From IMG/VR virus record IMGVR_UViG_2519899560_000023: 39,258 bases of DNA, one strand, 5' to 3'. Source of the stretch: a virus. Lineage: Duplodnaviria > Heunggongvirae > Uroviricota > Caudoviricetes. Positions within the stretch are counted from its first letter, which is position 1; each line of letters opens with the position of its first letter. Below, one piece after another: positions 4,937 through 10,093 of the stretch. Below the pieces are notes generated by a model. It was not told the origin of the DNA, made no database searches, and was given only the letters and a program-made list of their open reading frames with translations. Position numbers and translations under genes: made by a program.

Positions 4937-5158
4937 ATGGCGGTATTTTATATTCCTGATATTTACGGACGCTTTTACCTGGTTAATTTCGATAACGTGA
5001 AGGTGATTTCACTGGCCGAAAATAAAGAATGTGGCGATTTACTTTTTGAATTTAATGACCGCACACGAATGGTGATATCTGCCGGACTTGATCGCGAAGG
5101 TGCGACAGACGTTTACAGCGGAATATGCCGTTCTGTTGGTGCGAAACAAGTCAGCTAA
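4937..5158 (+). CDS. small early protein at the position of Mu kil
   Basis: ATG at 4937 preceded by AGGTG; about 73 aa; directly after B as kil is in Mu; homology not verified. Confidence 0.4.
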   Translation: MAVFYIPDIYGRFYLVNFDNVKVISLAENKECGDLLFEFNDRTRMVISAGLDREGATDVYSGICRSVGAKQVS

Positions 5159-5425
5159 ATGAGGTGTTATATGAATATGCAATCCTGCGGTAACAAAATG
5201 AATTTATTCGACTCCCTGAACAGCGCGCGCCGTCTGACCGAACTTGCCGGTGCGGTACTGGAACGCAGTAAGCGCTACCCACAACGTTTTGCACTGAAAA
5301 CCACGCCGCCGGTAGGCAACGTGCAGGGAACCGGTGAAATTGAAATCACCATACAGACCAACGGCCTGCGCCGCCGTGTGAAGGCCACCCGCATCAGCGG
5401 CTGCACGGTTTACTGGGAGGTGTGA
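5159..5425 (+). CDS. hypothetical early protein
   Basis: 88-aa track ORF, tightly packed in early operon. Confidence 0.4.
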   Translation: MRCYMNMQSCGNKMNLFDSLNSARRLTELAGAVLERSKRYPQRFALKTTPPVGNVQGTGEIEITIQTNGLRRRVKATRISGCTVYWEV

Positions 5426-5426
5426 G

Positions 5427-5708
5427 GTGAAAAAAAATCTCATTGCATGGGCGTGGTCGAGTGGTCTTATTGAGTTTGGTTACGTCCTGCCGGAAGGTGC
5501 ATTGCCGATAGTTGCCGGAAAGCCTGCCACGGTACGGCATGTGATTGAGGTTATGGCGCGTCATGGACGTGATGAACAGGAGCAGTTACTGGTTCCGGGG
5601 ATACCGGAAGCGGTGACGGAGGAAGAAGCCTTTAATGCCATGATTCGGTTCTGCCGTGAGGTCAGACGCCGGGTCAGTTATCCAAACAGAACGAGGACCA
5701 GAGGGTGA
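5427..5708 (+). CDS. hypothetical early protein
   Basis: 93-aa track ORF, stop/start overlap with neighbours. Confidence 0.45.
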   Translation: MKKNLIAWAWSSGLIEFGYVLPEGALPIVAGKPATVRHVIEVMARHGRDEQEQLLVPGIPEAVTEEEAFNAMIRFCREVRRRVSYPNRTRTRG

Positions 5709-5977
5709 GTAAAGTCGTACGCATTATTTTCGAATACAAGGAGCACGTTATCCATAAAAACGCTGATGGAACAGTGCGCATGGGGGTAAGTCTGGACATA
5801 CGTTCAACCGGGATAAAGCAGAAAGGTGATGGACCCGCCATGATTTTTGGGGTGGTTATGCTCGCGGAAAGCAGAGACTTTGCTGAACTTGTGGCAATGA
5901 AAGCCAGTGCGCTCATGAAAGATATGAGCATGCGTTCCGGGGTTATTAAAGGTAATGAATTTAATCAGCAGGGGTAA
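5705..5977 (+). CDS. hypothetical early protein, tandem paralog 1
   Basis: GTG start; N-terminus MSKVVRIIFEYKEHV matches the next gene. Confidence 0.5.
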   Translation: MSKVVRIIFEYKEHVIHKNADGTVRMGVSLDIRSTGIKQKGDGPAMIFGVVMLAESRDFAELVAMKASALMKDMSMRSGVIKGNEFNQQG

Positions 5978-5981
5978 TTCC

Positions 5982-6275
5982 ATGAGCAAAGTACGCGTTA
6001 TTTTTGAATTTAAGCATGTTTCGCATGACGAAAAACCGGCAGGCAATGACTGTGTTGAAGTGCATGAAAAGATTGGTGTGGATGTAAAAACAGAACGTGA
6101 TACGAATAACAGGCCGACGTCACTCTGTGACGTTTATGCAAGTATTCTCCAGTATCACAGCCCTGAAATTATTCAGTTTCTCTCAGCGGAATTTCAGGCA
6201 TCTGTACAGGCTTTTGGGGCGGATGCCATCATTAAACGCCACCGCGTGCATAAAGCATCAGGCACACTGCAATAA
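5982..6275 (+). CDS. hypothetical early protein, tandem paralog 2
   Basis: ATG at 5982 in frame within track ORF 5955-6275; N-terminus MSKVRVIFEFKHV. Confidence 0.5.
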   Translation: MSKVRVIFEFKHVSHDEKPAGNDCVEVHEKIGVDVKTERDTNNRPTSLCDVYASILQYHSPEIIQFLSAEFQASVQAFGADAIIKRHRVHKASGTLQ

Positions 6276-6286
6276 GGAAAAACAAA

Positions 6287-7994: not shown

Positions 7995-8509
7995 TGTTCT
8001 TTAAAACATCAAACCCTTCCGCGCTGGCCGCGTGGCAAAAATATCAGCAGGACTGCCAGAAAGTTAAGGATGAGGCAAAACGCCTTGAGGCCGTGCTGAA
8101 TGTTGCGTGCCGGTCGGTATTTGTATCCGGTATCAGTGGCTTTTGTTTTAAAGGGCTGCGCTTTATGGATGACAAATATCCTTTTCATCGCGACTTATGG
8201 CGAAAACCGACTGCGTCGAATGGCTGGAGCTGCACACCGCGCACATCACGTATTCCCAAAGCCCTGCGCGTTGCCTCTGACGAACTTAACAGTCTGTGGC
8301 GTGAATATTCGCCCGTCACGTATGCCAGAACCGATGCACTGTTGTTCTGGCTGGGTATTGACTTCTCAGCAATATTGCATGGTCCCGTGAAGTGGTTCTG
8401 CGTTGACGATGTTATTTACCTTCAGTGCGAAGATGATTCCGCAAAACGGAAAATGACCGAAATTCTGTCTGATGAGTTTTATGCTGCCGAAAAGCGAGTC
8501 GGGGGGTGA
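7994..8509 (+). CDS. hypothetical early protein
   Basis: 171-aa ORF, start overlaps previous stop. Confidence 0.5.
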   Translation: MFFKTSNPSALAAWQKYQQDCQKVKDEAKRLEAVLNVACRSVFVSGISGFCFKGLRFMDDKYPFHRDLWRKPTASNGWSCTPRTSRIPKALRVASDELNSLWREYSPVTYARTDALLFWLGIDFSAILHGPVKWFCVDDVIYLQCEDDSAKRKMTEILSDEFYAAEKRVGG

Positions 8510-8512
8510 TGC

Positions 8513-9064
8513 ATGATGAAATTACAACCCATGGGGAGAAAAGGCCGTGCACCCGCTCATGTTCGCGCATGGACACCTGAAGAAGATGCGCTGCTGATTG
8601 CGCTTTATCCATCCACCCCGGTTAAGGATATTGCTGTCAGGATAAAAAGAAGTTTCTGGGGTGTACATAACCGGATTGTTTTATTACGCGGTACTTACCC
8701 GGAGTTGCTCAAATGCAAACGCCTCAGATTTAAACCTGATGAAGATAAATTTATCCGAAAAAATGCCAGGACGATGACCGGTAAGCAAATAGGAGAATAT
8801 CTGGGGCGAGACCGGGATTCTGTCCACAATCGGGCGCGATATATTGGCGTAAGCATGAAAAAATACGGAGAATTACTGCCTTTTACCCGCATACCTGACG
8901 ATGATGTTCATCTTATTCGTGAATTACGGGATGCTGAATCACCACGGCGTCTTACCTTTAGGGAAATCGGCGAGAAATTTGAATTATCCGAGGGCACGGT
9001 GAGTTTTATTTATCACCGTCGTCGGACTGCCGAAGATGTTGTATTACGGGAGTTAACGACATGA
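8513..9064 (+). CDS. putative DNA-binding protein with three internal HTH-like repeats
   Basis: 183 aa; three segments of similar pattern (WTPEEDALLIALY..., FKPDEDKFIRKNARTMTGKQIGEYLGRDRDSVHNRARYIG, LTFREIGEKFELSEGTVSFIY). Confidence 0.45.
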   Translation: MMKLQPMGRKGRAPAHVRAWTPEEDALLIALYPSTPVKDIAVRIKRSFWGVHNRIVLLRGTYPELLKCKRLRFKPDEDKFIRKNARTMTGKQIGEYLGRDRDSVHNRARYIGVSMKKYGELLPFTRIPDDDVHLIRELRDAESPRRLTFREIGEKFELSEGTVSFIYHRRRTAEDVVLRELTT

Positions 9065-9246
9065 TAAGGAGACTTGTTTTTTTCGCAATTATCGTTCCTG
9101 TGTGGGGGGTTGGTTTTATATTTGCGGTTACAGGAAATCTGTCCATGATGCCGGATATATGGTTCTTTATCAGGATGTCGCTCTTCCTGTTTATTATGAA
9201 TCTTCTTATCGACATATATATCCGTATTACTGGAAAACATAAATGA
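9061..9246 (+). CDS. small hydrophobic membrane protein
   Basis: 61 aa, two hydrophobic stretches, AT-rich codons. Confidence 0.4.
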   Translation: MIRRLVFFAIIVPVWGVGFIFAVTGNLSMMPDIWFFIRMSLFLFIMNLLIDIYIRITGKHK

Positions 9247-9617
9247 GAAAAATCACGACCTTGTCAGAGTTACAGGAGATGAATATGAGTATTGAATTAA
9301 GATCGTCTTATGAATATCGTAAAATTCTCATCGCCGGAGGCATGAAACCGGAAGATGCAGAAAAAATCGTTTCTTTTATGGATAAAGAATGTGACAAACG
9401 GGATATGCCAGAAATTATTATGGATGACATGATTCTGGATTCAGCCGTGGCGTTAAGTCCGTTATGGATTGTGCATTCTCTTGCTGAAATTGCCAAAGGC
9501 ACCGATAAACAGGCAGCTGTTGCTGCCCTTCAGACGCTTAATGAAATGCGTATATCTCCACGCCCGACATTAATACATATGATTCTGTCCAGCATGGAGG
9601 ATAAAGCAAATGAATAG
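9243..9617 (+). CDS. hypothetical early protein
   Basis: 124-aa ORF, overlapping stops/starts. Confidence 0.45.
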   Translation: MRKITTLSELQEMNMSIELRSSYEYRKILIAGGMKPEDAEKIVSFMDKECDKRDMPEIIMDDMILDSAVALSPLWIVHSLAEIAKGTDKQAAVAALQTLNEMRISPRPTLIHMILSSMEDKANE

Positions 9618-9807
9618 TCTACCCGCTGGATGGGCGCGGCCACTAATGGCCAGGAAGCATCATTTTTTTAAAACAGGCGAAAATATCAGTATATGTGGAC
9701 GGTGGTTATATCTGGCTCATAATCGCGAGCCGGATACATTTGAAAGCCCTGATGGCTGTGCCGAATGCCGCAGAAGAGTGAATAAGGAGAAAGATAATGG
9801 ACAATAG
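9610..9807 (+). CDS. small hypothetical protein with Cys pairs
   Basis: 65 aa; ICGRW...CAECRRR may be a zinc-binding pair. Confidence 0.35.
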   Translation: MNSLPAGWARPLMARKHHFFKTGENISICGRWLYLAHNREPDTFESPDGCAECRRRVNKEKDNGQ

Positions 9808-10093
9808 TTCTCTGTTGTTCTGGTGCTTATATATCACATCCTTTTTCGGCGCATTTGTTATTACCCGGTGGTTATGTCGAAAAATCATCTGCTTTTTTGA
9901 TAAAAGACATCCGGTTGAACGGGCGGCTGATGCGCTCATTCAGCAGGCCATTGTGTTATATAGCGGTGAGTTTTTCTGCCGGATAACAACCAGAGATGGC
10001 TGGCACATAATGATTATTCCACCAACACACCATGCCCGGTGGGATGAGGCAGAAAAGGCTTTCCATGTCCGTAAAAAGGTAAATACGGTATGA
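9797..10093 (+). CDS. hypothetical protein with N-terminal hydrophobic segment
   Basis: 98-aa ORF; N-terminal LLFWCLYITSFFGAFVI. Confidence 0.4.
   Translation: MDNSSLLFWCLYITSFFGAFVITRWLCRKIICFFDKRHPVERAADALIQQAIVLYSGEFFCRITTRDGWHIMIIPPTHHARWDEAEKAFHVRKKVNTV

Follow-up and report, generated by a model that had tools for sequence, protein, structure and literature searches.

What kind of region lies between the MuB and GemA genes of a Mu-like prophage, and what might its many small genes do? The question is posed by positions 4937-10093 of IMG/VR virus record IMGVR_UViG_2519899560_000023, a stretch of 39,258 nucleotides (the window) that carries a Mu-like transposable prophage. These 5157 bases follow MuB (4002-4934; Pfam Phage-MuB_C, E 2.5e-25) and run up to their downstream boundary GemA (10090-10599), a gp16-family protein with a Pfam PF06252 match at E 3.2e-30 and 44% identity to Mu GemA. 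They hold 14 genes, numbered O1 to O14 here; these genes and GemA all lie on the + strand. We read the block, with a probability of about 0.8, as the distal accessory part of the prophage's early operon and as the counterpart of the semi-essential region of phage Mu, from B to GemA. Homology searches have shown a backbone in common with Mu, made up of Kil, one or two gp7-like proteins, Gam, gp11, gp12, and a gp9-type helix-turn-helix (HTH) protein. Interleaved with it are genes absent from Mu (O1, O3, O7, and O11-O14), several of which occupy swappable slots. The region is a Mu-type semi-essential early region, which is a known kind, with a gene set of its own. The original prediction, made from the bases and their reading frames, had proposed this equivalence, and it holds: the block occupies the early strand from B to GemA, contains Gam, and is partly homologous to its Mu counterpart.

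Coding content of the block

The block is tiled exactly by 14 + strand open reading frames (ORFs) with a coding fraction of 96.7%, in agreement with the 14 or so small, tightly packed ORFs first described. The junctions between adjacent genes range from −11 to +38 nucleotides, the sole exception being a 97-nucleotide spacer after gam, and the GemA start overlaps the O14 stop by 4 nucleotides. E. coli E2865 has an identical copy, in which RefSeq/PGAP likewise calls these 14 genes. The starts used here are the PGAP starts, with Shine-Dalgarno-like sequences upstream; that of O12 at 9285 is supported by the phrog_1988 match, which begins at residue 15 of a longer ORF.

Several of the ORFs are short (61-98 residues), two begin with GTG, and none of these has a curated Pfam family, as could be expected if some were chance reading frames. 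Against this, + strand ORFs of at least 60 residues cover 0.98 of the block, compared with 0.20 ± 0.08 (maximum 0.47) in 200 shuffles. When the block is compared with seven other E. coli prophage copies, the pooled pairwise ratio of nonsynonymous to synonymous substitution rates (dN/dS) falls within 0.06-0.40 across all 14 ORFs and is thus well under 1 for each; the boundary genes B and GemA give 0.13 and 0.22 in the same comparison. Furthermore, each ORF matches a PHROG family, at E values from 6.7e-5 to 1e-106. ORF coverage, dN/dS, PHROG matches, and PGAP calls therefore identify all 14 ORFs as real protein-coding genes under purifying selection. Together with the Shine-Dalgarno-like sequences before the starts, they make chance reading frames extremely improbable.

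A backbone shared with phage Mu

Gam had been considered the only recognizable protein of the block. That view has to be revised, as O2, O3, O4, O5, O7, O8, O9, and O10 can also be assigned to families, although for most of them recognition is an assignment to a family and not to a function. The Gam call itself is secure. O6 (6287-6817; 176 residues) is a Ku-like DNA-end-binding host-nuclease inhibitor whose residues 19-167 match the whole of the Pfam PF07352 profile, positions 1-149 of 149, at E 1.5e-41 and 142 bits against a cut-off of 28.3. It is 57% identical to Mu Gam over its full length and has a dN/dS of 0.06. Binding of double-strand ends and blocking of RecBCD are established for Mu Gam (cited in PMC12407980), and O6 is predicted to do both.

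O2 (5171-5425; 84 residues; dN/dS 0.07) is a member of the Kil family and a distant homologue of Mu Kil (gp5). The direct BLASTP match to Mu Kil is weak (33% over 39 residues). The link runs through phrog_2679, 'Kil protein for bacterial septation inhibition', which O2 matches at E 7.8e-46 and which Mu Kil itself also matches; a search with the profile of O2 relatives recovers Mu Kil at 3.5e-29. O5 (5982-6275; 97 residues; phrog_2230, E 1.8e-40; dN/dS 0.40) is a probable homologue of Mu gp7 (E6), with an hhalign probability of 82.7% and an E value of 9.5e-6 over 73 columns against the Mu gp7 family. O4 (5705-5977; 90 residues; GTG start; phrog_4107, E 1.1e-61; dN/dS 0.35) is a diverged paralogue of O5 (hhalign probability 77%, E 2e-5) and is weakly gp7-like in its own right (probability 30%).

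Downstream of Gam, O8 (7461-7994; 177 residues; phrog_1949; dN/dS 0.16) is a homologue of Mu gp11, with 67% identity and a match to Pfam PF25754, Gp11_C, at E 3.5e-40. O9 (7994-8509; 171 residues; phrog_2314; dN/dS 0.20) is a homologue of Mu gp12, with 53% identity, and PGAP calls a 94%-identical copy 'Mu-Gp12 family protein'. No functional work on Mu gp11 or gp12 was found in the literature searched. O10 (8513-9064; 183 residues) is a basic protein of the gp9 family in which three tandem Myb/SANT-type HTH repeats can be read from the sequence, accompanied by sub-threshold Pfam HTH matches to Sigma70_r4, HTH_AsnC, and Myb. It matches phrog_323, 'transcriptional regulator', at E 1.1e-58, a family shared by Mu gp9, and its family profile finds Mu gp9 at 2.6e-33 (dN/dS 0.22). 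O10 is probably a DNA-binding protein. Searches of PDB sequences with O3, O7, O8, O9, O10, and O12, as well as with family profiles of O3 and O7, returned nothing at E < 0.2.

A comparison with the corresponding region of Mu (AF083977; kil/gp5 to gp15, between B and gemA) shows the same position, strand, and tight packing. The two regions share Kil, a gp7-like protein, Gam, gp11, gp12, a gp9-type HTH protein, and a non-coding element after gam. They also differ. Mu gp6, gp8, gp13, gp14, and gp15 have no counterpart in the block, and the PHROGs of the first four are matched by no ORF of the window; pairings of O12 with gp14 and of O1 with gp6 or gp8 were rejected by hhalign. Conversely, O1, O3, O7, and O11-O14 have no counterpart in Mu. 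In the block, the gp9-type gene encodes three repeats and follows gp12, whereas its Mu counterpart encodes two and precedes gam; the gp7-like gene is duplicated in the block, unlike in Mu. Finally, GemA overlaps the last gene of the block, while in Mu it has its own upstream spacer and promoter, and a single Mor/C-family gene follows it here, where Mu has two.

Of 5426 complete E. coli genomes, 232 contain some form of the block, and the gp11-gp12-O10 segment is kept at a coverage of at least 80% in 231 of these. This retention, together with the homology to Mu, would fit an explanation in which gp11, gp12, the gp9-type HTH protein, the gp7-like proteins, and O3 with Gam mainly help with Mu-type replicative transposition, the repair of its intermediates, and the regulation of early genes, comparable to the 'arm' and 'lig/gem' phenotypes of Mu, and are not directed against host immunity. 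The DNA-binding motifs of O10 point in the same direction, as does the link of O3 to the DNA-end-binding Gam through fusion and adjacency; moreover, the prophage has a single Mor/C-family activator, so that an extra regulator could be needed. However, these proteins show no homology to replication, recombination, or repair enzymes, and their Mu equivalents are described in established Mu genetics as dispensable for plaque formation. A helper role for this set is a reasonable possibility, held at somewhat less than even odds.

Transcription of the block

The genes on either side of the block have a Mu-like order. A repressor-like gene on the minus strand (870-1475) faces ner (1591-1839), which is followed by the gene for a Mu-type transposase (MuA; 1841-3931) and by MuB. 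Downstream, an intrinsic-terminator-like element lies after GemA on the + strand, at 10604-10627, and consists of a 9-bp stem followed by TTATTTT. Its predicted folding energy of −20.8 kcal/mol (z −2.65) was equalled by none of 200 shuffles, and it is likely to mark the end of the early transcription unit. Within 4800-11300, internal promoter-like sites are not in excess over shuffles (7 found, 8.2 expected), and neither are internal terminator-like sites (8 found, 7.9 expected).

By analogy with Mu, the block would be co-transcribed from the early promoter upon induction or infection and would be silent in the lysogen. On the same analogy, Kil would arrest cell division, Gam would bind double-strand DNA ends and exclude RecBCD, and GemA-type proteins would alter host gene expression. 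The HTH protein O10 would bind DNA, and gp11 and gp12 would serve a conserved phage function. The most likely role of O3 is that of an accessory partner to whatever fills the 'Gam slot', namely Gam in this prophage and DUF3164 elsewhere among phages. The variable, low-GC tail of the block, with its two hydrophobic small proteins, would contribute exchangeable functions, which could be related to counter-defence, exclusion, or the envelope.

Some points weigh against this account of an early operon and its products. A simple promoter scan flagged no consensus promoter upstream of ner; it is by analogy that we infer co-transcription from the early promoter; and the membrane location of O11 and O14, though plausible, is putative, being read from hydropathy alone.

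Replaceable slots and the low-GC tail

Among annotated E. coli copies, the gene content differs in three slots: the interval between kil and gam, the position after gam, and the tail. Replacements or deletions are explicit in five of the compared loci (L006, L007, L009, L010, and L011). In the first slot, strain M3 is without O3 and O4, while STEC299 is without O4 but has an extra ORF; by locus, O4 is missing from L009 and L010. In the second, O7 is swapped for a DUF5420 protein or absent. In the third, O11 is swapped for two other genes in FORC_044 (L006), and in NCCP 13963 and HH35 other genes take the place of the whole of O11-O14. Natural prophage copies exist without O3 and O4, without O7, or without O11-O13; such losses show that a prophage can lack a gene, which does not establish growth of the phage without it.

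O1 (4937-5158; 73 residues), the first gene of the block, has a GC content of 0.42 and encodes an acidic protein (isoelectric point 4.9). It is a PGAP coding sequence that matches phrog_3375, a family of unknown function, at E 1.2e-46 and has no Pfam match; its dN/dS is 0.28. Homologues of O1 directly follow MuB in three IMG/VR loci (L040-L042).

O7 (6915-7457; 180 residues), which is not in Mu, fills the replaceable slot after gam and is present in 213 of the 232 genomes. Its relatives are few and fall into 14 clusters, almost entirely of E. coli origin; the farthest is a Salmonella protein named DUF5420 (38% identity, E 2.1e-22). O7 also shares phrog_2260 with the protein, named DUF5420 by PGAP, that takes its place in E. 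coli NCCP 13963. Its search against Pfam gave no match at E ≤ 0.01, so that the DUF5420 threshold is not reached; the homology is nevertheless clear and makes O7 a divergent relative of DUF5420-named proteins, not a scored family member. An AlphaFold2 model built from eight sequences is confident, with a mean predicted local distance difference test score of 85.5 and a predicted template modelling score of 0.78. Its search against BFVD returned uncharacterized viral proteins only, O7 has no solved structural match, and no functional work on DUF5420 was found in the literature searched.

Between gam and O7 lies the non-coding spacer (6818-6914), in which an AT-rich stretch and a GGCGC...GCGCC hairpin are found. 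Six aligned loci, Mu among them, show the spacer to be conserved irrespective of whether the next gene is O7, DUF5420, or gp11, and its nucleotide identity to Mu (L002, 6326-6423) is 76%, compared with 66% for the gam coding sequence. The hairpin was considered as an unusually stable RNA, which was unsupported in the window (z −0.35; the Mu value is −1.94); an Rfam scan of 4500-11300 gave no match.

The tail (9061-10093) has a GC content of 0.42, compared with 0.49 for 4937-9060 and 0.57 for the late region. Low values are found gene by gene in O1 (0.42), O4 (0.46), O5 (0.44), and O11-O14 (0.37-0.46), against 0.56 for Kil and 0.52 for Gam, and the non-Mu genes are lower in GC. The tail is also the most variable in its retention: 219 genomes hold some part of it, and only 107 hold O11-O14 whole, at a coverage of at least 80%. 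O11 (9061-9246; 61 residues; phrog_19804, E 6.7e-5; GC 0.37) is a putative small membrane protein with two hydrophobic segments at approximately residues 1-28 and 32-58 and a Kyte-Doolittle maximum of 2.62, where a hydrophobic stretch is defined by a 19-residue window of at least 1.6. O12 (9285-9617; 110 residues; phrog_1988, E 9.6e-45; dN/dS 0.15) is acidic, with an isoelectric point of 4.9; its tblastn matches are to SfMu and Yersinia Mu-like phages only, its relatives being confined to enterobacterial Mu-like phages. O13 (9610-9807; 65 residues; phrog_2358, E 3.6e-33; dN/dS 0.18) is basic and covers just positions 4-67 of a 146-position profile, and its C-x7-H...C-x2-C pattern makes it a possible zinc-binding protein. 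O14 (9797-10093; 98 residues; phrog_17269, E 2.2e-32) is a putative membrane-anchored protein with an N-terminal hydrophobic segment at residues 4-24. It is just 50% identical in L008 and L009 and missing from L007 and L011. The original prediction of an AT-rich tail with small membrane proteins is thus upheld for base composition, and the hydropathy of O11 and O14 makes its membrane part plausible.

A weak sigma-70-like match lies inside O14 at 9983-10011 (ATAACA, a 17-nucleotide spacer, and CATAAT), approximately 80 nucleotides upstream of GemA. In Mu, a semi-early promoter is annotated just upstream of gemA. The tail promoter-like matches, this one included, may reflect base composition.

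These properties raise the possibility that O11-O14 form a moron with its own promoter, expressed in the prophage state to block other phages or alter the envelope. The low GC content, the patchy retention (107 of the 219 genomes with any tail), and the hydrophobic segments of O11 and O14 would suit such a cassette, and six of the seven promoter-like matches of 4800-11300 fall within 9061-10011. These matches, however, score just 9 of 12, as expected in AT-rich DNA, and their total is not above shuffles. In addition, no PADLOC match was obtained, and the tail is built into the early operon because it lies on the same strand and joins O10 and GemA through overlaps of 4-11 nucleotides. An independent moron is improbable, and membership of the tail in the early operon remains the preferred reading.

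O3 and the Gam slot

O3 (5427-5708; 93 residues; GTG start) is a free-standing homologue of a C-terminal domain that is fused to Gam in transposable phages of Pseudomonas. A tblastn search of phage genomes with O3 gave 75 records, of which 65 are Pseudomonas Mu-like phages with the match inside the annotated gam gene. The 266-residue Gam of D3112 illustrates the arrangement: residues 1-161 form a Gam domain 54% identical to the Gam of the window, and residues 176-248, in frame with it, are 43% identical to O3 (E 8e-19). The Gam proteins of D3112, DMS3, the JBD phages, and MP38 hold Gam and the O3-like C-terminal region of approximately 75 residues in one polypeptide, while in the window the two are separate genes 579 nucleotides apart, with O4 and O5 between them. 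No published function for the Pseudomonas C-terminal domain was found in the literature searched.

Relatives of O3 are labelled 'host nuclease inhibitor' in PGAP and in phrog_1518. This label was rejected for O3, which lacks homology to the Ku-like Gam domain: it has no Pfam Gam match, its hhalign probability against Gam is 0.3%, and it aligns to residues 176-248 of D3112 Gam only, outside the Gam domain. Most probably, the label was carried over from the fusion. The family comprises 546 representative clusters at E ≤ 0.001, mainly stand-alone proteins of 80-110 residues with some fusions; a Pfam scan of ten longer O3-domain proteins recognized no partner domains. One homologue occurs in the non-Mu phage BcepMigl, where its neighbours are all hypothetical proteins. 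Modelling of O3 gave no informative fold match. A likeness to MbtH-like proteins, adaptors of nonribosomal peptide synthetases (NRPSs), is at most a hint that O3 could be a small adaptor that binds proteins: the sequences are 9-14% identical, Pfam gave no MbtH match, O3 has an extra long C-terminal helix, and its context is phage, not NRPS.

Among 54 divergent viral loci from IMG/VR that contain an O3 homologue (L040-L093), 19 have Gam, 30 have DUF3164 (PF11363, with Pfam E values down to 2e-87), none has both, and five have neither. Where a partner is present, it is encoded within approximately 530 nucleotides of the O3 homologue and on the same strand in 45 of 49 loci, in either order. DUF3164, which is not in the window, takes up the Gam position next to the O3 homologue in the 30 loci, for example at 4332-4970 of L040 and 4122-4739 of L043; L040 otherwise has O1, Kil, O5, O7, gp11, and gp12 in common with the window. 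A reading of DUF3164 as no more than a remote Gam was rejected on an hhalign probability of 0.1%, and no functional study of DUF3164 was found in the literature searched. Fusion, adjacency in both orders, and mutually exclusive neighbours therefore suggest that O3 works with whichever protein fills the Gam slot.

Several observations count against such a partnership. The 54 loci are related Mu-like phages, so that part of the pattern reflects inherited synteny, and the adjacency could be largely of this origin. Mu has Gam without O3, and the L010 copy from E. coli has lost O3 and O4 and kept Gam; any partnership is therefore facultative. Furthermore, the five loci with O3 alone have neither Gam nor DUF3164 within 6 kb.

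The stronger proposal, in which O3 serves as a modular accessory subunit where phages protect DNA ends and DUF3164 does the work of Gam in many Mu-like phages without being homologous to it, is tentative and rather doubtful. In this scheme, O3 might tune the dealings of the end-binding protein with RecBCD or with defences that sense RecBCD antagonism, such as Gabija and OLD-type nucleases. The Gabija-escape mutation T96A in the Gam of JBD30 lies inside the Gam domain and is uninformative on the O3-like domain. If O3 does modulate end protection and DUF3164 does replace Gam, this would bear on the way in which RecBCD antagonists expose phages to Gabija and OLD-type defences (PMC12407980), and a widely propagated 'host nuclease inhibitor' label would be corrected.

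Are the slot genes counter-defence genes?

Slot-wise replacement is the pattern expected of accessory or arms-race genes, which is indirect evidence. It invites the explanation that most of O1, O3-O5, O7, and O11-O14 form a counter-defence island, expressed first and inhibiting restriction, CRISPR, or abortive infection. The position in the early operon beside the anti-RecBCD protein Gam, the small size of the proteins and their lack of enzymatic domains, the replacement between close prophages, and the lower GC content of the non-Mu genes would all accord with it. In a Pseudomonas Mu-like phage, moreover, the Gam and GemA homologues interact genetically with Gabija, each making the phage Gabija-sensitive (PMC12407980); such genes therefore sit at the interface between phage and immunity.

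On the other side, none of the ORFs could be matched to a PHROG or Pfam family, or to a solved structure, with an anti-defence name, and the O7 and O3 models are without an informative fold match. The searches, made with general libraries and with O3 and O7 modelled, gave no anti-defence name among the PHROG, Pfam, and NCBIfam matches or the PDB searches. For the 14 proteins, the PADLOC-DB defence models gave 0 families at E ≤ 0.01, NCBIfam gave no informative match, and Pfam returned only Gam, Gp11_C, and sub-threshold HTH motifs. The dN/dS values of 0.06-0.40 denote purifying selection with no obvious arms-race signal, and half of the block is the backbone conserved in 231 of the 232 genomes. 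An anti-defence role, which the original prediction had suggested as a candidate function for the block, is possible for the slot genes, neither supported nor excluded by these results; a dedicated island that comprises most of them is unlikely.

The prophage and its spread

Copies 100% identical to 4937-10093 occur in many Shiga-toxin-producing E. coli (O157:H7, O26, O103, and O145), and the same element is annotated 'Mu-like phage' inside two Shiga-toxin-converting phages, of the Stx1 and Stx2c types (LC727895 and LC727881). The exact sequence of the block is thus already present many times in RefSeq, where nearly all of its genes are annotated as hypothetical proteins. The window is colinear with the E. 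coli E2865 prophage from 620 to 39258, its end being the stop codon of mom. The left end of the prophage lies at approximately 620, and bases 1-619 are a flank different from that of E2865, as expected of a transposing phage. The E2865 prophage (L003/L004) sits in the tnpA gene of IS609, and the flank of the window contains an ORF that runs off its start (1-468). The differing flanks and the copies inside Shiga-toxin-converting phages are consistent with recent transposition. The prophage of the window is probably of the Sp18 type of O157 Sakai. Sp18 is the name that the literature gives to the Mu-like prophage of that strain (PMC4406740; PMC13502914).

Other features of the prophage

The Mor/C-family activator gene (10669-11094; Mor-family match at E 2.8e-32) is followed by a lysozyme gene. 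It is the only activator of this family in 10600-11094 and resembles Mu C (39% identity) more than Mu Mor (26%), and the strong terminator-like hairpin stands between GemA and this gene. Mu has two activators, Mor and then C, and a three-step transcription cascade. Because there is one activator instead of two, the cascade may be organized differently in the prophage of the window.

In the tail-fibre region, inverted repeats of 182 nucleotides (32993-33174 and 34196-34377) lie 1021 nucleotides apart, are 78% complementary, and adjoin a recombinase-family gene according to the E2865 annotation. The pair looks like an invertible host-range switch of the Mu G-segment type. The right end (36300-39258) carries com and mom, by colinearity with E2865 (L004). 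Before these, genes for a DUF6645 protein (2040 bp), DUF1378, and DUF826 and a minus-strand hypothetical gene form a second accessory cluster.

Implications

Shiga-toxin-producing E. coli harbour Mu-like prophages of this type as active mobile elements, and the accessory genes that these express first decide the course of host-cell takeover. The region is ordinary for a Mu-like phage; beyond its annotation, one new lead has emerged, which ties O3 to the Gam slot. Sorting the genes into a backbone and three replaceable slots guides the choice of genes for experiments.

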